From Pseudomonadota bacterium (GTDB lineage: Bacteria > Pseudomonadota > Alphaproteobacteria > Rhizobiales > CBDHHC01): a stretch of 64,000 bases of DNA. The translations under genes were made by a program, and so were the position numbers. The notes beneath the pieces were generated by a model. That model did no database searches and was not told the origin of the DNA. It worked only from the letters and a program-made list of their open reading frames with translations. Below, one piece after another: positions 7,549 through 64,000 of this stretch. Position 1 is the stretch's first letter, and each line of letters begins with the position of its first letter. The stretch is taken from NCBI GenBank assembly GCA_039033475.1, contig JBCCCO010000001.1, positions 23,874 through 87,873 of the forward strand, in the 5' to 3' direction.

Positions 7549-8268
7549 CTACTGCTGTGCTTGAATTTGTTGTTGCCAAGTGTGGTACCCTTTTGCGCGT
7601 AATGTGCACGCTGGGCAATGCCCGCATCCAAAGCCCCAAGGGTGTTTTTTATCGCGTTTTCCCAAATAGCATGTATGAGTGTGTTCTATAATAAGTTTAA
7701 CAAGTGCATGGCCGCCCAGCTTGTGCGCCATTGCCCAGGTTGCTGCTTTGTCGATATGCATTAAGGGGGTGATGATTTGAAACTGAGCCTCGGTGCCCAG
7801 AGATATTGCCTGTTCTAAGGCTTTGAGTGTGGTTTCACGGCAATCTGGATATCCAGAATAATCAGTCTCGCACATGCCACCCACTAGATCAAATAGCGAG
7901 CGGCGGTAGCCAAGCGCTGCCGCATAAGTGAAAAATAGCAAATTTCTTCCTGGAACAAAGGTATTCGGCAGCCCGGCATCGGTCATGGTAATTTCAGCAT
8001 CTCCGGTGAGTGCGGTATCTGAAACTTGGCCAAGGGTTTCTAGTTTTAAAACATGATCTGCGCCGCGTTTTTCTGCCCACTGTGGGAAGGTTTGATCAAG
8101 TGCAGTTAGGACATTTTGCCGGCAAGACAGCTCGATATCATGGCGCTGGCCATAGTCAAAGCCAATGGTTTCAACGGTTTCGTATGTTTCAAGTGCCCAG
8201 GCAAGGCAAACTGTTGAGTCTTGCCCACCGGAAAACAATACCAAAGCTGAAGTTCTATCAAGTGTCAT
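7549..8268 (-). CDS. queC: 7-cyano-7-deazaguanine synthase
   Basis: It has the PP-loop [10 protein letters not shown] and a C-terminal Cys cluster (CGHCPAC). The start is probably the internal ATG at 8268 ([15 protein letters not shown]) rather than 8298. Confidence 0.9.
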
Positions 8269-55784: not shown

Positions 55785-57104
55785 CTATTCTTTTTCAGAA
55801 TACGATGTTTTGCTCAAAATATTAGGAGCGTTAAGTTGTAACTGGTTCGTAATTTTCACTTTCACCCCTTCTCCTACTATAGAAAGCCGCGTTAATAATA
55901 CAAAATGACCTTCCGGCAAATCGCCTTGAACGAGAATATCATTTTGTGCTGTACCGACAACCTCAACTTGCCTTTTAAGCAATCGGTCATCTTCAATGAT
56001 ATAAACAAAATTTCTCTCAAACAATGACGTTTGTGGCAAGCGCGCAACATTGGTATACTTTCGGTCAGGAAAAATAATTTCTACAAAAGCTCCGGATTTA
56101 ACCGGTGCAATTTGCTCATGCTGTAGGATACGCGCAAACAATTGAACCCCTCCACTGTCAGATGTAATTTGTGGGTTTACGCGTTCTACGCGCGCTTTGT
56201 AAACCAGTGGAGATGCCCCAACTCGCCAATTTACAGCAACCTCACGGTCAATCATATTTTCATCTGAGGCTAAGATGCGCCCATATTGCGCATCCGAGAG
56301 AGTGAATTTCACATCTGTCCAGTTTTTATCAAACAAAGTGGCAACATTATCATTAGCACTGACTATACGTCCAACTTGTGCTGTTACTCCACTTACATAA
56401 GCCTCAAATGGCGCAACAAGTTTTGTATCTTTTAAATTTCGTTTGGCTTGGCGAACGCTCCATTCCCACCTTACAATGATAGCGCGTTGCTGCCCAGACT
56501 TTGCTAATTGAACATCATAGCCATTTTTACGTTTCACAATATTTTGCGTGCGCTGTACAACAAGCAGTCTGCGCTCATCCAAAGCCCGCTTTGTCACGGT
56601 ACCATCTTTGGCGAGTGCTTCTGCGCGTTGCAAATCACGCCTTCCAATCTCAAGTTGTTCTTGCTCAAACTCAAGTGCATTTTTCTCAAATTCCAAAGCA
56701 GCCAGAATTTCAGCTAATTTTGCCTTGGCCTCACTCAATTTTGCTTTGGCATCAGTCAGTGCACCTTGATATTCAAAACCATCAATTTGCAGTAAGATTT
56801 CATCTTTTTTAACGATGCCGCCAGAACGAAAATTTTCACTTACATTAATGATTTTACCTGTAACAAGAGCCCGTAAATCCACTTGCCGCCCGGCAATAAC
56901 CTCACCATAAAGCTTAATATGCGGTTGATGGTCCTGATAAGAGATTTTGGCGGCACGAACTGGCCACACTTTTTCCACCCCCTCTTTGCTCGCAATTTTA
57001 GGCTTTGAGCTTTTCAAATAGCCATAAATTTGAAGGGCTGCAAACAATACTGCTATAGGAATAATGGTTTTTAGAATAAGCCGCGTATAAGAGATATTAT
57101 TCAT
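55785..57104 (-). CDS. efflux transporter periplasmic adaptor (MFP/HlyD_D23 family), orphan
   Basis: It has an N-terminal TM helix, a lipoyl-like hairpin (VTGKIINV...VKKDEILLQID), a long alpha-hairpin and beta-barrel/MP domains. No pump gene is adjacent. Confidence 0.82.
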   Translation of the reverse strand: MNNISYTRLILKTIIPIAVLFAALQIYGYLKSSKPKIASKEGVEKVWPVRAAKISYQDHQPHIKLYGEVIAGRQVDLRALVTGKIINVSENFRSGGIVKKDEILLQIDGFEYQGALTDAKAKLSEAKAKLAEILAALEFEKNALEFEQEQLEIGRRDLQRAEALAKDGTVTKRALDERRLLVVQRTQNIVKRKNGYDVQLAKSGQQRAIIVRWEWSVRQAKRNLKDTKLVAPFEAYVSGVTAQVGRIVSANDNVATLFDKNWTDVKFTLSDAQYGRILASDENMIDREVAVNWRVGASPLVYKARVERVNPQITSDSGGVQLFARILQHEQIAPVKSGAFVEIIFPDRKYTNVARLPQTSLFERNFVYIIEDDRLLKRQVEVVGTAQNDILVQGDLPEGHFVLLTRLSIVGEGVKVKITNQLQLNAPNILSKTSYSEKE

Positions 57105-57339
57105 GTTAAGCGCATTTTCTCTAGATATAGATGAATTCCTGTTTATCCATTATGATATGAGTGTTCAAAATATTAAATCAATACATCTAGGCCCAAGACC
57201 TATAAATAGACATTATAAAGAGTTTACCTTTATTGTGTGTTACATTCTGATATATCAGCTCGCTCAATCGGGGCCAAATGTGGGCAATACGCCCAGTTTT
57301 GATTTGAATGTTTTTTGTTCGCTGTTTGTTATTCTTTCT

Positions 57340-57763
57340 AACTCGTTTGATGGCCTGGTTCTATCAAATTTTTCAGATTAAACCTAGATCAATCCACATA
57401 ATGATACGTTCTATATGACGCGATTTACGCGCCCTGAATTCACATCTCTGTGCACGATTACAAATCAACCTGATTTTATATACTTGGTCATCGATTATGT
57501 GCCACAAGATTGGCTGGTAGAATCGAAATCACTCAAACTATATTTATCATCATTTTGCAACCACGGTGCTTTTCATGAAGACTGCACGGTGTCCATTGGT
57601 AAGCACTTGGCACATTTGATTGAGCCACATTGGCTACGCACCGGTGGGTATTGTTACCCGAGGGGAGGGATCCCCATTGATGTATTTTTTAAATCAATGG
57701 GGCAAAGCTCCAGAAGGTGTCTGGATTACAGAACAAAATGTCCCATCCTACCGAGGAAGGTAG
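57340..57763 (+). pseudogene. queF: NADPH-dependent 7-cyano-7-deazaguanine reductase, pseudogene
   Basis: The core [15 protein letters not shown]...[10 protein letters not shown]...[11 protein letters not shown] is clearly QueF. Two in-frame stops (TAA 57379, TAG 57385) interrupt the N-terminal region. The canonical C-terminus [21 protein letters not shown] is in the +1 frame after a T6 run at 57685-57690. Confidence 0.7.
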
Positions 57764-57799
57764 GATGGTCGCAAATAATGATTTCAGATTGTTTTTTGA

Positions 57800-58264
57800 C
57801 TATTGTTTAGGCATAGTTGGGGCAATTGCCTGGCCTGTTGATTTAGGTATTATATCGGAAGCTTGCACCTCATGCTGTACACTACTAAAATAAGCAGTCG
57901 AGACTATACCACCTTTGGGCAACTTAATGTTTTCAAAACCACGAAATGTGTTGCCCTGCCAAGTAACTGTTGTGTTAGGTTTTAAAGTGATAGTGTAATT
58001 TCCAACACTTTTTACATCTGCGGCACTGATACCAAGATATGATAAGCCGCCCCCAGTCCAACGAGTAACTTGACTAAAATCTATCCAATCAACACCTGAA
58101 CCGCCATTGAAATAAGCATTTTTTGTATCAGAACTTACTATTACTCTATCGTTGCCTCCAAAAGTAGCAACAGATTTTGTAGAAGATGATGTTTTTACGG
58201 TATCATTTCCTGATGTTCCAAAATACCATCCGTCTTTAGGAGTATTATCTATTCCATTTGCCAT
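57800..58264 (-). CDS. small RTX-like (GGxGxDxUx) repeat protein, candidate T1SS substrate
   Basis: A 154 aa protein with no signal peptide. It has one perfect nonapeptide (GGSGVDWID) and two degenerate ones ([17 protein letters not shown]). It lies directly downstream of the T1SS genes on the same strand. Confidence 0.55.
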
Positions 58265-58470
58265 TCTTATTTCCTTTATAACTGTTTTACTTCACGTTGT
58301 TCTTTATTAAAAAAGAAAGATAATTCAATCAAAAACCCCCAATAATTAACATAGAACAATAATAACATCATAATAAACTTTGTCACTTTTTTGATCTCTA
58401 CTTTATATTTATTTTGTAACATTCTCATTTTATACTTAATTCAACCACTGTTATACATTAGGAAGTTGCA

Positions 58471-59718
58471 CTATTCTTCACGTAGCGCCCGTGACAGCTG
58501 GTCTGTGAAGGGTTTCATCAAATAACTTAACACGGTTCTGCTGTCTGTTTGAATGTATGCTTCGGCAGGCATGCCCGGCACCAGCTCTTTTCCTTTAAGG
58601 CGCTCGATTTCTCCCTCATTAAGCCCAATGCGTACCGTATAGAAAAATGCCTGGGCTTGTTCATCTTTAACCAAATCAGGAGAGACATTAATGACTGTTG
58701 CGTTTAGTTCTGGTGTGGTTCTTTGGTTAAAGCTTGGTAATTTCACTTTAACGCTTTGGCCTGTGTTAACCTGATCAATATCAGTTGGATTTATATTGGC
58801 CTCAAACACAAGTTTGGCATCTGAAGGCACAATTTGCAAAATTTCCTGCCCTGGGGCGACCACGCCACCAATGGTATGAACTGCAAGTTTGTGTATACGC
58901 CCAGAGAGAGGAGCCCGCACTTCCAGGCGGCTCTTATCTGTCGAAAATCGAGAAATATCAGAGGTTAAGCGGCCATACTCTCCCTCTAGCTCGGCAAGCT
59001 GACGCTCTTGATTGACAACACGGTTTCTTGGCACAAGGCCTTTCTGTGCCAAAGCTTTTAAGTCTTCAAGCTCACTTCTTAGCAAGATCAGCTGTTGTTC
59101 TTTGGCATTGGCCTGAGAGGACAGACCTGTGAGTTGGTCCTCTACACGCTTTTTGTCCAGTCTCACCAAAACCTCGCCTTCACTGACACCTTGGCCATCT
59201 TTGACTGAAATCTCACGAACTATGCCCCCTTCAAGGTGCTGCACTGATTTGATATTTGATTCAACGACAACTTTACCGCTTGCTATCACAGCTCCACTAA
59301 TCTGATAGAATGTTGCCCATCCTCCAATTCCAATCACCAGGACCAACAGAAGCATTTTTGCTCGTGCCATATAATGATCAATTTGGTTATCTTCATCTGT
59401 CACAGATTGTGGCACGCTGTTGCCCTGACCGTGATGGCCAGGAACAAGTTGGCGAGAAGGATGAGCGGGCTGAGGAATTGCCCTCGTGGTTGTGTGTGGA
59501 CCATAAGGCTGTGGCATTGCCGGTTGGGGGGGATAGAACGGTTGTTGTACCATTGGAGCATGCGGCATCATCGGCACGGGCATAGATGTATGCATGGCAG
59601 AATATGGGTTATGAGGCTGATGCATTGGCCCCATATGTTGCTGTTGCTGGTGTTGATACTGCATCGGAGACTGTCTCATAGCTGGATTATTCCAGTTAGG
59701 CCCTACTTTTGTTTCCAC
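58471..59718 (-). CDS. type I secretion membrane fusion protein (HlyD family) with a P/M/Q/H-rich N-terminal extension
   Basis: The core ISGAVIASGKVVVESNIKSVQHLEGGIVREISVKDG matches T1SS HlyD-family adaptors. GTG 59718 is preceded by caggggg (SD) and overlaps the ABC gene stop by 16 nt. Confidence 0.88.
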   Translation of the reverse strand: METKVGPNWNNPAMRQSPMQYQHQQQQHMGPMHQPHNPYSAMHTSMPVPMMPHAPMVQQPFYPPQPAMPQPYGPHTTTRAIPQPAHPSRQLVPGHHGQGNSVPQSVTDEDNQIDHYMARAKMLLLVLVIGIGGWATFYQISGAVIASGKVVVESNIKSVQHLEGGIVREISVKDGQGVSEGEVLVRLDKKRVEDQLTGLSSQANAKEQQLILLRSELEDLKALAQKGLVPRNRVVNQERQLAELEGEYGRLTSDISRFSTDKSRLEVRAPLSGRIHKLAVHTIGGVVAPGQEILQIVPSDAKLVFEANINPTDIDQVNTGQSVKVKLPSFNQRTTPELNATVINVSPDLVKDEQAQAFFYTVRIGLNEGEIERLKGKELVPGMPAEAYIQTDSRTVLSYLMKPFTDQLSRALREE

Positions 59719-62381
59719 TTGAGACCCCCTGTTTTATTCTGACTGATCGCTCCTGGTTTACTTTCATTTATCAGTTTTGGTTTTGTCTTAGTTAATGGCA
59801 CTTTTTTGGGTTTTAAAATTTTATCTTTCGGACCAAAGGCATCCTGCCTGCCGTCCGTAAGCACCATAATCTTATTTACATTTTCCAAAACATTAGGCCG
59901 ATGCGCCATAATAATAAATGTCCGCTGCATGCGCCGCATTGCTAAGATTGCATGACCTAGCGCTTCTTCACCGCTTTTGTCCAAATTGGAATTAGGCTCA
60001 TCCAGAACAATTAAAGCAGGCGCACCATAGAGCGCACGGGCAAGCGCTATGCGTTGTCTTTGACCGCCAGACAGCGCGAGCCCACTTTCCCCAACTCTTG
60101 TGTTATAGCCCTCTGGCAATGACGCAATCAGTTCATGCACATTTGCATAGCGCGCTGCTTCTATAATTGCTTGTGGTGTTGCGTTAGACGTAAAACGTGA
60201 AATGTTTTCGGCAACAGTTCCATTGAACAGCTCAGCATTTTGCGGCAAATATCCAACATGTTTGCCAAGTTGCTCTGGCGGCCAGTTTTCGAGAGCTGAT
60301 GAATCAAGGCGGACACTGCCCCGCAACGTCGGACATACCCCAACTAAAACCTTCGCTAAAGTAGATTTACCAGATCCGCTTTGACCAAGCACGCCCAGAG
60401 CATCGCCTGGTTCCAGATGAAAATTTAATCCCTTAAGAATCGGCATTTTTGTACCAACTGGCGCCGCAAACATATTCTCTACAACGAGATATCCACGCGG
60501 CGTTGGCAATTGAATACGATTTTGTTCCGGTGGAGGGTTCTTGAATTCACGCTGCAACCTGCCCATACTTTGTCGTGTGGCGACAAAATTGCGCCACTGT
60601 CCCACGGCCTGCTCAATAGGGGCAAGACCACGTGACATGATAATACTGCCTGCAATCATCGCACCAGGTGACATTTCACCTTGCAAAACAAAATAGGCCC
60701 CAGCAGCTAACATAGCTGACTGAAGAAACAATCTTAACACTTTAGTTATAACGGAAAATGACCCTGAAATATCAGCTGCAACAGTGTTGCTCGTTAAACC
60801 GGCATGATGTTTGTTGAGCCAACGGTCACGAAACGCATTTGCCATTCCCATGGCTTGTAGAATTTCACTGTTACGCCGACCAGATTCATAAACAGAGTCA
60901 CTTTCATGATTTTCACGTGTTGCTTTTGCCACTGGCTCTTGTGACATAAATTCATTCACCAAAGCCAATATAACAAGTATAATTGCACCTACAACAGCCA
61001 AAAAGCCAAGCGCCCAGTGCAACAGAAAAACTATTAGAAAGTAAAACGGGGCCCATGGCATATCAAAAATTGAAGCCATTGCAGGGCTACCAACAAAACT
61101 GCGCACTTGACGCAAGTCTTTTAATAATTGTGTCTGCTGGCCACCTTCAGCCGGACCTCTAACACCAACTGCACGGTCAAAAACTTGCTTGCTTAATAAC
61201 TTGTCAACACGCACCCCAACCCTTACCAGCACACGAGAACGAATAATATCCAGCAGTCCCATAAAGATAAAAAGTGCAATCACCAAAGTGAATAAGGCTG
61301 TTAGCGTCGGAACACTTCCACTTGTTAAAACACGGTCATAGACTTGCAACATGAATAGTGGACCCGTTAACATTAGAATGTTTGAAAACATACTAATGAC
61401 CAATGCACCACCTAAAGCATCGCGGCATTTGTCCCAAACATCATCATATGAATGTTGGTCTGTTTGCGCATTACTTCCAGGATGTGATGCTTTTTGAAGA
61501 GAACGCTTTTTTCGTTTTGGGTCAAAAGATTGCAAGATCCGAGGCCATTTTTGATTCAACATATTTGCAAAATGGCTCCCGGCAGGGCGCTGATTATAAT
61601 TATTTTGTGGCACAAGCCCTCGACTAAGAGCAAAATTATTCTGGCCACGAGATGGTTGCATATGAGGATATTGCTGAGGCGCATATGGTGTCATTGCTTT
61701 GTTAAAGTGTTGCACAGATGGCTGTGCAAAAAATGAATGCGCTCTGATACCTTGGTTGTGAGCTTGCTTAACATTTAGTGCCTTATGATTATGATATCCT
61801 CCATGGGCGTTGCCTTTGTGCTTGCCTGGTTGTAAAGTCAGTGTCAGTGTTGTGGCAAATATTCCCCACACCGCAATCAAAGCTGTATACATCGTAACTG
61901 TTGGAAGTTTTTGGACATATTCTATGTAGTTATAAAATGCCAACAGTGCGATCCAGCACGATATAAAGACCAGAATTGATACTGCAAACGGTACTATTTG
62001 ATGATCTGCCAGGCGAGCATTGTGCCCCCAATGCATGACAGATGATTGAAAGCGGCGCAGCTGCACGGCGTTAATATACAAAATAATAGCAAAACTGGCC
62101 GTTAACCCAATTTCTGATGCGAAAACTTTAAATGATAAAGACCCAGCTATAAACGCAGAAATACAAAAGAATATGCAGAGCAATCCCACAAATATAATAC
62201 GGTCAAGATAGGCAACAGTTGAGCGCAAAGACAAAAGGGCTCTGTTGCCTGATGTCACGAGGGTAATGGTGTAGACATTTACAAGCAATGTACTTATTAA
62301 TACAGCCACGAGTGCAGGCCAATATAAATAGCCCAAGAAAGTGAACAGCTCGACTGAATTTAAAGGCGTATTGTGTTCCAT
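59703..62381 (-). CDS. type I secretion system permease/ATPase (PrtD-type ABC exporter) with a novel N-terminal membrane extension
   Basis: The C-terminal ~580 aa form a canonical T1SS ABC: FMLQVYDRVLTSGS, Walker A GQSGSGKST, signature LSGGQRQRIALARAL and Walker B LIVLDEPNSNLD. The N-terminal ~315 aa have about 5 hydrophobic helices and a low-complexity linker. The start is GTG 62396 or ATG 62381. Confidence 0.9.
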   Translation of the reverse strand: MEHNTPLNSVELFTFLGYLYWPALVAVLISTLLVNVYTITLVTSGNRALLSLRSTVAYLDRIIFVGLLCIFFCISAFIAGSLSFKVFASEIGLTASFAIILYINAVQLRRFQSSVMHWGHNARLADHQIVPFAVSILVFISCWIALLAFYNYIEYVQKLPTVTMYTALIAVWGIFATTLTLTLQPGKHKGNAHGGYHNHKALNVKQAHNQGIRAHSFFAQPSVQHFNKAMTPYAPQQYPHMQPSRGQNNFALSRGLVPQNNYNQRPAGSHFANMLNQKWPRILQSFDPKRKKRSLQKASHPGSNAQTDQHSYDDVWDKCRDALGGALVISMFSNILMLTGPLFMLQVYDRVLTSGSVPTLTALFTLVIALFIFMGLLDIIRSRVLVRVGVRVDKLLSKQVFDRAVGVRGPAEGGQQTQLLKDLRQVRSFVGSPAMASIFDMPWAPFYFLIVFLLHWALGFLAVVGAIILVILALVNEFMSQEPVAKATRENHESDSVYESGRRNSEILQAMGMANAFRDRWLNKHHAGLTSNTVAADISGSFSVITKVLRLFLQSAMLAAGAYFVLQGEMSPGAMIAGSIIMSRGLAPIEQAVGQWRNFVATRQSMGRLQREFKNPPPEQNRIQLPTPRGYLVVENMFAAPVGTKMPILKGLNFHLEPGDALGVLGQSGSGKSTLAKVLVGVCPTLRGSVRLDSSALENWPPEQLGKHVGYLPQNAELFNGTVAENISRFTSNATPQAIIEAARYANVHELIASLPEGYNTRVGESGLALSGGQRQRIALARALYGAPALIVLDEPNSNLDKSGEEALGHAILAMRRMQRTFIIMAHRPNVLENVNKIMVLTDGRQDAFGPKDKILKPKKVPLTKTKPKLINESKPGAISQNKTGGLKWKQK

Positions 62382-62421
62382 ACACGTATCGCACACATAT
62401 TGTTTTCAATGAATATAGGCA

Positions 62422-62507
62422 GGTTCAGGGCCTATAAATAGCATCTATTCCGCGAGAGAGAACTTGCTTCCTGAACAGAATTGTATGTTATTTATAAGTC
62501 CTGAGCC
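62422..62507. repeat. 86-bp palindromic (MITE-like) element with GGYTCAGGRCYTATAAATA terminal inverted repeats
   Basis: The sequence ggttcagggcctataaata (62422-62440) is the imperfect reverse complement (16/19) of tatttataagtcctgagcc (62488-62507). It lies between tolC and the ABC gene. Confidence 0.6.
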
Positions 62508-62610
62508 CAATAACAAGCAGCTAGAGCAATCGTAACTCATGCTTATGGCGCATATACGGCAGTATCAAGATATTTCAGAGTTAACGGCTTTTTTAGATTT
62601 TGTTCGCGGC

Positions 62611-64000
62611 TTACTTAATGGCAGAAGATTGCGTATTTTTCAGATAACTTTGACCTAAATAGTCTTCATCACCTGTTTTAGGCGTATCCGAACCCCACAA
62701 CTTATTCCGGACTTTCTGATAGTAAGCTTTGGGATCATAACGCTGTACAGATGGATCAATACGATCAACTGTAAGAATTCCCATTGCGTTTAGCAATTCA
62801 TAGGCGCTCACATGTAAATCACGCTTTGTACCAAGAAGACGAATACGAGATTCGACAAGCTCTTTATCTGCATCCAGCAGGTCCATCACCGTGCGCTGCC
62901 CGATGCGCAACTCTTCTCGAATGCCTTCTAATGCTTTTTCACTTGCAATAACTGCCTCTTGATCAGATAGGCGACGTTGGCGAGCAGCCTTTAATTGCGC
63001 CCAAACGCTACCGACAGCTTCTGCCATTCTCACCTCGGTGTCGCGTTTACTACGCTCTAAACTTTCTGCAATATGGCTGGCCTCACGCACACGGGCAGAC
63101 ACTTCACCACCTTGATAAAGTGGGATATTGATTTGAGCGCGAACAAAAAAATTATCTTCTTCACCATTGTTTGAAATCACATCATTAAATGAAACATCGT
63201 CCTCTGAAGAGTAACCCGCAGACAAATCAGCTTTTGGTAAGAAATCAGCGCGCTGTTTTTCAACAGCATGCAATGCCGCCTCACTTCTATGATGAGCTGC
63301 CGCAACTTCAGGGTTAGCTTCATTCGCCAATTTCACAGCCTCCGTCAACGTCTTTGGCATTAAAATCTCTGGGAATTTAGGCATCTTGAGATGTTCGGGA
63401 GGTTTGCGCGTTACACGAGCATATCGCAATTGACTGGTTTGCAATTGAGCTTCTGCGGCTTTTAGAGCAGAGCGTGAGGCTGCAAGACGTATCTTAACTT
63501 GCTCCACATCTGTTACTGTGCCTTGACCGCGGTCATATCGATCACGCGTTCCAATTAATTCACGCCTCAAAGAGGTCACATTGCGTTTGCGTAACAGCAA
63601 AATACCTTCATCACGCAAAACTTCTAAATACGCGCGTGCTGTTTCAAATAAAATACTATTTTCCCGCGCCAATAGATCGTTACGCGCAACATGAACATTG
63701 GATTCTGCCTCATCAACAGAGGATTGTGTTTTAAACCCGTCAAAAAGAGGTTGATCAAGACGCACGCCATAACCAACGCTACCATTGTCAAAACCATCAA
63801 GTCCGCCTCCCCCTTCTGAAGAAACGCGGTAATTGCCAAATGCCGTGACTTTAGGACGATATCCAGACAGGGCTCTGGCCACACCCTCATCAGAGGCGCG
63901 GGCTTTAAAACGCTCAGCTTGCAATAACAAGTTTCGCTTGTAAGCCGCAACCATCGCATCATTAAGGCTTTCCGCGTGGGTTTGGGAAACGGACAGCACA
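62611..64000 (-). CDS. tolC: TolC-family type I secretion outer membrane protein (5' end beyond the window)
   Basis: The pattern LNDAMVAAYKRNLLLQAERFKARASDEGVARALSGYRPKV and the duplicated coiled/beta repeat structure are typical of alphaproteobacterial TolC. The ORF runs off the window edge. Confidence 0.85.
   Translation of the reverse strand, partial: VLSVSQTHAESLNDAMVAAYKRNLLLQAERFKARASDEGVARALSGYRPKVTAFGNYRVSSEGGGGLDGFDNGSVGYGVRLDQPLFDGFKTQSSVDEAESNVHVARNDLLARENSILFETARAYLEVLRDEGILLLRKRNVTSLRRELIGTRDRYDRGQGTVTDVEQVKIRLAASRSALKAAEAQLQTSQLRYARVTRKPPEHLKMPKFPEILMPKTLTEAVKLANEANPEVAAAHHRSEAALHAVEKQRADFLPKADLSAGYSSEDDVSFNDVISNNGEEDNFFVRAQINIPLYQGGEVSARVREASHIAESLERSKRDTEVRMAEAVGSVWAQLKAARQRRLSDQEAVIASEKALEGIREELRIGQRTVMDLLDADKELVESRIRLLGTKRDLHVSAYELLNAMGILTVDRIDPSVQRYDPKAYYQKVRNKLWGSDTPKTGDEDYLGQSYLKNTQSSAIK

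Follow-up and report, generated by a model that had tools for sequence, protein, structure and literature searches.

A PrtD-type type I secretion locus with an extended ABC protein and a neighboring basic RTX-like protein unlike the cargos of related pumps

According to the established view of type I secretion systems (T1SS), a complex of an ATP-binding cassette (ABC) protein and a periplasmic adaptor would recognize a very acidic RTX (repeats-in-toxin) protein, still unfolded in the cytoplasm, by a C-terminal signal that is not cleaved, TolC would then be recruited by this complex, the RTX protein would be threaded out in one step, and its beta-rolls would be folded by extracellular calcium after export. 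Among the predicted RTX proteins surveyed, only three are not acidic, and NodO of Rhizobium leguminosarum, a 30-kDa RTX protein, is exported by the PrsDE system (PMC3034196). At their C-termini, RTX proteins are rich in D, L, T, V, I and F and poor in R, K, E and P, with [FLI][VAI] as the typical end, and the N-termini of T1SS ABC proteins have been sorted into those with a C39 domain, a C39-like domain or none (PMC8861453). The locus described here lies at the end of a 64,000-nt stretch of DNA (hereafter the window; contig JBCCCO010000001.1, positions 23,874 to 87,873 of the forward strand) from an alphaproteobacterial metagenome-assembled genome (MAG), and it comprises genes for a TolC-family channel, an ABC protein, a HlyD-family adaptor and a 154-aa RTX-like protein. 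A sequence-only reading had proposed a complete T1SS with atypical extensions on both inner-membrane components and the small protein as candidate cargo; its sequence facts, the machine and the extensions withstood further analysis, and the cargo assignment, the weakest part of the finding, was not supported by the comparisons made. We consider the chances about even that the following holds as a whole: the pump is a genuine member of a clade with extended ABC proteins, the gene for its acidic cognate cargo lies elsewhere or has been lost, and the small gene does not encode that cargo.

The four genes all lie on the minus strand, head to tail and in the order proposed before: tolC (62611 to beyond 64000), the ABC gene (open reading frame (ORF) 59703-62396, 897 aa), the adaptor gene (58471-59718, 415 aa) and the small ORF (57800-58264; MEM7618901.1, AAF228_00380). 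The last two are separated by the AT-rich gap of about 200 bp that had been noted, which measures 206 bp (58265-58470) with a GC content of 0.238. Completeness of the locus holds on the source contig and not in the window, as mapping of L001, the Logan contig of this region, places the start of the full 502-aa tolC at ~64119, ~119 nt past the window end, leaving ~40 codons and most of a signal-peptide-like N-terminus outside. The claim of a dedicated tolC-ABC-adaptor T1SS agrees with the scores of all three products, which exceed the curated NCBI subfamily cutoffs: TolC reaches 275 bits with TIGR01844 (cutoff 225) and matches Pfam OEP with an E-value of 1e-61, the ABC protein reaches 684 bits with the PrtD-type model TIGR01842 (cutoff 510) over profile positions 3-542 of 544, and the adaptor reaches 300 bits with TIGR01843, the type I HlyD model (cutoff 209). 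The ABC protein likely starts at the ATG at 62381 (892 aa), where the NCBI and Logan calls agree and where the closest homologue starts, with MEHN, at the equivalent point. Direct reading of its translation shows intact Walker A, signature, Walker B and H-loop motifs. The start of the adaptor gene overlaps the stop of the ABC gene by 16 nt.

Relatives of the pump were drawn from 87 fetched loci, namely L001 and 86 others (L002-L087). The ABC gene has its closest relatives among Hyphomicrobiales-type Alphaproteobacteria. Identity in the ABC core does not exceed 61% for any other related locus, and the lineage is therefore poorly sampled; the closest locus, L002, has an ABC protein 56% identical to that of the window. 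Linkage of tolC, ABC and adaptor genes is kept in L002, L003, L005 and L006. As in the PrtDEF, AprDEF and PrsDE systems, the ABC core matches TIGR01842, adaptor and TolC score above the cutoffs of their models, the genes are clustered, and the cargos encoded in related loci are acidic RTX proteins whose extreme C-terminus is acidic-hydrophobic. The T1SS core itself is ordinary, and the three large genes would constitute a working PrtD-type T1SS. The window locus differs from those systems in three respects: the ABC protein has an additional five-helix domain of ~183 residues followed by a basic linker of ~120 residues, the adaptor has an additional Pro/Gln/His-rich extension of ~115 residues, and the locus lacks a canonical cargo gene.

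The extension of the ABC protein that had been called atypical is evident from the TIGR01842 alignment, in which profile position 3 is reached only at residue 323 of the 897-aa ORF. In an AlphaFold2 model built with 33 sequences of the clade, helices are predicted at residues 9-44, 47-80, 84-117, 126-150 and 161-183, with a predicted local distance difference test score (pLDDT) of ~80-93. Together with conservation in the clade, this delimits a confidently modeled five-helix membrane domain at residues 1-183 (61833-62381, minus strand). It is followed at residues ~184-306 (61464-61832, minus strand) by a predicted cytoplasmic linker rich in Gln, Asn, His and Pro, in which residues 185-306 have a pLDDT below 50, and then by a standard exporter core (59703-61463, minus strand; TIGR01842, Pfam ABC_membrane and ABC_tran) with a six-helix transmembrane domain and a nucleotide-binding domain. 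The linker contains 17 K+R against 4 D+E and has an isoelectric point (pI) of 10.6, a basic character that would suit acidic over basic clients. This architecture is not private to the window. About 34 of the best 120 ABC homologues are 820-983 aa long and have a hydrophobic N-terminal domain of ~190 residues and a variable low-complexity linker; in this clade (homologues P0126-P0170; loci L003-L011) the linker spans ~120-220 residues and is basic in 16 of 20 members, and the genes are typically arranged as tolC, a large RTX/LamG cargo, ABC and adaptor. The window protein and that of L002 form a subclade in which the N-terminal domain has diverged from the rest.

No C39 or C39-like domain is found in the ABC protein, which has no match to Pfam peptidase_C39, and its N-terminus fits none of the three classes of the published scheme; this mismatch marks a variant architecture, not exclusion from T1SS. 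A Pfam search with the N-terminal domain of three clade members returned no family, text searches for T1SS ABC proteins with extra transmembrane helices gave no relevant paper, and the pairing of an N-terminal membrane domain with a basic linker in this T1SS ABC clade is apparently undescribed. A parallel in outline is the TMD0 of eukaryotic ABCC and TAP proteins, likewise an additional N-terminal bundle of membrane helices that a linker connects to the core of a type IV ABC exporter. The window protein, however, is a bacterial half-transporter in a T1SS, and a relationship in sequence is not expected; the resemblance may indicate how the extension works and not where it comes from, and a literature search pairing type I secretion with TMD0 gave only a structure paper on yeast Ycf1p. 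With HlyB/HlyD/TolC the locus shares the tripartite architecture and, by analogy, an N-terminal accessory region of the ABC protein that could hold unfolded substrate, but in the window this region consists of membrane helices and a disordered linker and not of a cytoplasmic C39 or C39-like fold. It is conceivable, though unlikely, that the five-helix domain and its basic linker mark a fourth class of architecture, with the extension taking the place of a C39-like domain in the capture of unfolded substrate.

The adaptor also carries the atypical extension attributed to it, since its core begins near residue 115. Alignment and composition delimit a low-complexity stretch at residues ~1-115 (59374-59718, minus strand), rich in Pro, Gln, His and Met, which would be cytoplasmic and is near-neutral to slightly basic. 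It is present only in the window locus and in L002 (9290-9700 of that locus) and is missing in the four other clade members aligned. The two loci with this adaptor extension are the same two that have no RTX cargo gene upstream of the ABC gene.

A scan of the 87 loci for ORFs carrying two or more RTX motifs showed that in about two dozen of them, L003-L011 included, an ORF of this kind ends just upstream of the ABC gene; the proteins encoded there all have a pI of about 4 (about 4.05). In L003, L005 and L006 the order is tolC, a gene for an RTX/Laminin_G_3 protein of 1212-1263 aa, ABC and adaptor, and in L007 a gene for a 1418-aa RTX protein directly precedes the ABC gene. Seventeen cargos were compared in detail: 15 of them have an acidic-hydrophobic C-terminal motif (such as DDFRFVA, DDVRFVA, DDMRVG/A/I, DEFRLVA, TDFDILA or VSDIVIF), the net charge of their last 60 residues is -9.7 +/- 4, and R, K, E and P make up 10% of their last 20. 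The ending (L)H(Q/E/R)DD(F/V)RFVA is conserved in L010, L026, L033, L042, L044, L047, L065, L074, L082 and others, in ORFs whose end lies just before position 8001 of the locus, while cargos of the extended-ABC clade end instead in DD(G)MRV(G/A/I). This conserved C-terminus is a usable signature for finding cognate cargos. In the window, the slot that holds the acidic RTX/LamG cargo gene in L003, L005 and L006 is a 229-bp intergenic region between tolC and ABC (62382-62610). Such an upstream gene is missing from both the window locus and L002, and tblastn with the large cargos of the relatives found no relic of one in either. Because the slot is empty in both, the cognate cargo of the pump would be encoded elsewhere or have been lost.

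The small ORF at the other end of the locus is, to judge from its sequence, a real gene. Its ATG is preceded by an AGGA ribosome-binding site, its codon likelihood is -4.03 in frame against -4.29 and -4.66 in the other frames, and both the NCBI and the Logan annotations call it. These signals, together with a paralogue found at a BLASTP E-value of 4e-11 and similarity to RTX repeats that reaches an E-value of 2e-11 against 1.84 billion proteins, make it very improbable that the ORF is a chance open frame in AT-rich DNA, even though its low GC, its AT-rich flank and the restriction of its full-length match to a single MAG would be expected of one. The gene is compositionally distinct from its neighbors, with a GC content at third codon positions (GC3) of 0.239 against 0.370 +/- 0.034 for 30 window genes, and probably has transcription signals of its own. 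A promoter-like site with 10 of 12 matches and an extended TG lies in the gap (58386-58359, minus strand), although the eight such sites counted in the region, against 4.7 +/- 2.1 in shuffled sequences, are weak evidence in DNA so rich in AT. A candidate terminator between convergent genes lies 32 nt past the stop codon, namely a hairpin whose 10-bp stem runs into a T-rich tract (57743-57768, minus strand). No terminator-like site was found in the 206 bp between the adaptor gene and the small ORF, a search of 57000-59000 against Rfam gave a single sub-threshold chance match, and a repeat search around the gene for insertion scars gave nothing convincing. The Logan annotation also calls a hydrophobic ORF of 50 aa in the gap (58276-58428, minus strand), which we discard as a probable artefact of AT-rich DNA (GC 0.22, no clear ribosome-binding site).

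The repeats attributed to the small protein are present as described, one perfect (GGSGVDWID, residues 54-62) and two degenerate (GTSGNDTVK, 16-24; TFGGNDRVI, 34-42), within a region that covers residues 16-62 (58079-58219, minus strand). The pattern GxxGxDxUx occurs six times in the six-frame translation of the 64 kb, and two of the six occurrences fall inside the small ORF, so that the repeats are more than chance. In a HMMER search of the 1.84 billion representatives, residues ~9-69 of the small protein found RTX-repeat proteins, while matches to the NCBIfam RTX region are marginal (E 0.0015-0.04) and Pfam HemolysinCabind (PF00353) gave no reportable score. The turns start at residues 16, 34 and 54, a spacing of ~18 that equals one full turn of a beta-roll, and the nonapeptides between them, in which Ser, Thr and Lys abound, are degenerate. 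Since good turns recur every 18 residues, the geometry of beta-rolls (PMC6891781) suggests a one-sided mini beta-roll, probably with no more than about two calcium sites, all on the same face, followed by a beta cap and a disordered tail. The AlphaFold2 model, built from two sequences only, has a mean pLDDT of 60 and shows an all-beta core at residues 14-114 (pLDDT 63-81), a beta-hairpin module, and disorder at residues 122-154 (pLDDT below 50). By these boundaries residues 63-120 (57905-58078, minus strand) would form a beta module shared with the paralogue and residues 121-154 the predicted disordered tail (minus strand). As to the beta-roll anticipated for the protein, the all-beta core is modeled at low to moderate confidence, and Foldseek gave no significant match in the PDB (best E 0.28), the weak matches often being RTX rolls such as those of CyaA, PML lipase, alkaline protease and the AlgE R-modules. 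A sequence search of solved structures gave a best E-value of 0.14, to unrelated proteins.

Two described proteins invite comparison. Block V of the CyaA RTX domain with its C-terminal cap (residues 1529-1681, ~153 residues) is a minimal self-folding RTX unit, of similar size to the small protein, and is a short beta-roll that needs the cap to fold (PMC6891781), much as the small protein is modeled with a beta core and a beta-hairpin; CyaA block V, however, is acidic and has calcium sites on both faces, and the model of the small protein stays at the low pLDDT and Foldseek values given above. NodO is acidic and has canonical tandem repeats, whereas the 154-aa protein is basic, shows only three recognizable turns and falls below the Pfam RTX threshold. 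Both are small alphaproteobacterial proteins, NodO an RTX protein and the other RTX-like, without a signal peptide and associated with a PrtD-type T1SS (PMC3034196), NodO being about twice the size. Smallness is not remarkable in itself, as predicted RTX proteins of fewer than 100 residues have already been catalogued (PMC3034196).

In two large protein collections, the sole full-length relative of the small protein is a 199-aa paralogue from the same MAG (P0004; MEM7621265.1, AAF228_12555), encoded on a 7-kb contig. The two align end to end, the repeats of the paralogue are the better preserved (PF00353 27.4 bits, cutoff 23), and both have a non-RTX module, TxTLK..T.V...GNTxxGFExxxL. A profile of the two paralogues matched the 17 cargos in the RTX part only, the C-terminal module being found in none, and a profile search of the contig collection with the same alignment gave 44 pattern matches of which none was confirmed, this collection evidently being without the MAG. 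That two diverged paralogues have the same architecture speaks for a small family with a function and against a decayed fragment. The small ORF could still be the decaying, functionless N-terminal fragment of a former RTX cargo in a genome that accumulates pseudogenes, in keeping with an N-terminus that resembles those of the large cargos of the clade, degenerate repeats below the Pfam threshold, an empty cargo slot and a visibly decayed neighboring queF with two in-frame stops and a frameshift. We regard this as improbable, given that the reading frame is unbroken, is preceded by a ribosome-binding site and has a codon signal clearly in frame, that the 18-residue spacing of its good turns looks structural and not random, and that the paralogue has kept the whole architecture, including a module absent from all cargos tested, which argues for selection on the whole protein.

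Against the cargos of related pumps, the small protein and its paralogue stand out in every property compared. Its pI is 8.86 and that of the paralogue 9.66, whereas 118 other proteins matched through their RTX repeats all have a pI of at most 5.28. The net charge of the last 60 residues is +3 in the small protein and +4 in the paralogue, the share of R, K, E and P in the last 20 is 25% for both, and the two end in APTMPKQ and PNAANFT, respectively. It had been remarked that the C-terminus of the small protein does not obviously resemble known secretion signals, and indeed it has no acidic-hydrophobic end and a charge far from the -9.7 +/- 4 of the cargos. The gene lies downstream of the adaptor gene and not upstream of the ABC gene, and its GC3 is deviant. 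No counterpart was found in any of the 86 other related loci; in L002 the adaptor gene is followed by a cytochrome c' gene. Co-occurrence of the small protein with this T1SS, a check put forward with the cargo proposal, is seen in the window and in none of the other T1SS loci examined, the only full-length homologue being the paralogue on its 7-kb contig of the same MAG. Text searches on basic RTX proteins found no relevant paper. Charge, C-terminal composition and motif, position, linkage and base composition all set the protein apart, and because it is without the marks common to the cargos of related pumps it is most likely not the cognate cargo. We infer both this and the details of its fold by comparison and modeling, and its adjacency is better read as incidental, with at most opportunistic use of the pump.

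Several observations pull the other way. To our knowledge, RTX-type calcium turns are almost confined to proteins exported by T1SS, and such turns need extracellular levels of calcium for folding. As had been stated before, the small protein lacks a signal peptide: neither a Sec nor a Tat signal is present, and direct reading shows no hydrophobic segment at the N-terminus. Its gene is on the same strand as the pump genes, 206 bp downstream of the adaptor gene, with no terminator-like site in the gap, so that read-through from the pump operon is possible. The N-termini of the small protein and its paralogue (MANGIDNT and MANIDTT) resemble the MANGETQIGT..NDTLTG of the large cargos of the clade, residues 1-58 of the paralogue matching residues 1-53 of the L003 cargo with 46.6% identity (E 5e-6). 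The last ~33 residues are predicted to be disordered, as T1SS signals are, and such signals are poorly conserved, some substrates, Sap for example, having no recognizable one (PMC3034196). Furthermore, the diverged ABC domain and the novel adaptor extension of the window and L002 suggest that substrate preference may have shifted, and the search for a canonical cargo covered L002 and, of this MAG, the window only.

These points favor an alternative that we rate as possible but rather unlikely, namely, in line with the earlier cargo proposal, that the small protein, and probably its paralogue too, is a genuine non-canonical minimal passenger of the T1SS, which would be recognized through its disordered tail or its RTX-like turns, would leave the cell unfolded and would fold with calcium once outside. 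Besides the adjacency, the lack of a signal peptide, the disordered tail and the N-terminal likeness just given, it draws on repeats that in the paralogue pass the HemolysinCabind cutoff, and on a cargo slot empty here and in L002, where the new cytoplasmic extension of the adaptor could go with a change of substrate. The basic pI, the positive C-terminus with Pro and Lys and no acidic-hydrophobic end, the lack of co-occurrence in related loci, the deviant GC3 and the position downstream of the adaptor speak against it, as does the charge of the pump itself, basic in the cytoplasmic extension of the ABC protein and near-neutral to slightly basic in that of the adaptor. More doubtful still is the wider proposition that the subclade of the window and L002 has switched to exporting small, basic, one-sided beta-roll proteins by a non-canonical signal and, more broadly, that a fourth class of T1SS ABC protein exists. 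We retain the reading of an extended-ABC pump beside a gene that does not encode its cognate cargo.

The locus is surrounded by housekeeping genes (tyrC, hisC, metXW, ruvX, mfd, recG), which places it on the chromosome and in no obvious island. Convergent to the small ORF lies a pseudogene-like queF, for the type II preQ1 synthase (57340-57763, plus strand). It has two in-frame stops in its N-terminal part and a frameshift near a T6A3 run at ~57680-57690, after which its end continues in another frame to a stop at 57761-57763, a terminal stretch that we take to be a typical QueF C-terminus. The bases of the candidate terminator hairpin encode, on the plus strand, the final PSYRGR and stop of this decayed gene. 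A listed ORF overlapping queF (57415-57810) has a codon signal barely above that of the off-frames. On sequence grounds the damage could be true decay or could reflect homopolymer errors in the MAG. The Logan assembly L001 breaks at ~57657, inside the decayed queF and 143 nt beyond the small gene, which may reflect strain variation or low coverage at that point. Farther along, a gene for an adaptor of the resistance-nodulation-division (RND) type (55785-57104, minus strand; TIGR01730, 124 bits) stands alone, with ruvX downstream, the decayed queF upstream and no RND pump or ABC partner adjoining it.

What goes beyond the routine in this locus is the clade of ABC proteins with a conserved N-terminal domain and a basic linker, and the pair of basic mini-RTX paralogues. 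The small protein serves as a caution that adjacency and a few RTX-like turns do not make a cargo, and the related pumps provide a cargo signature that can be checked: a very acidic protein with an acidic-hydrophobic end, encoded upstream of the ABC gene. Should the pair of basic mini-RTX proteins be exported after all, the known range of signals and charges of T1SS substrates would widen. The conserved membrane-domain clade would add a class to the three-class scheme of T1SS ABC proteins (C39, C39-like, none) and would offer a handle on the unsettled question of how unfolded substrates are held before transport.

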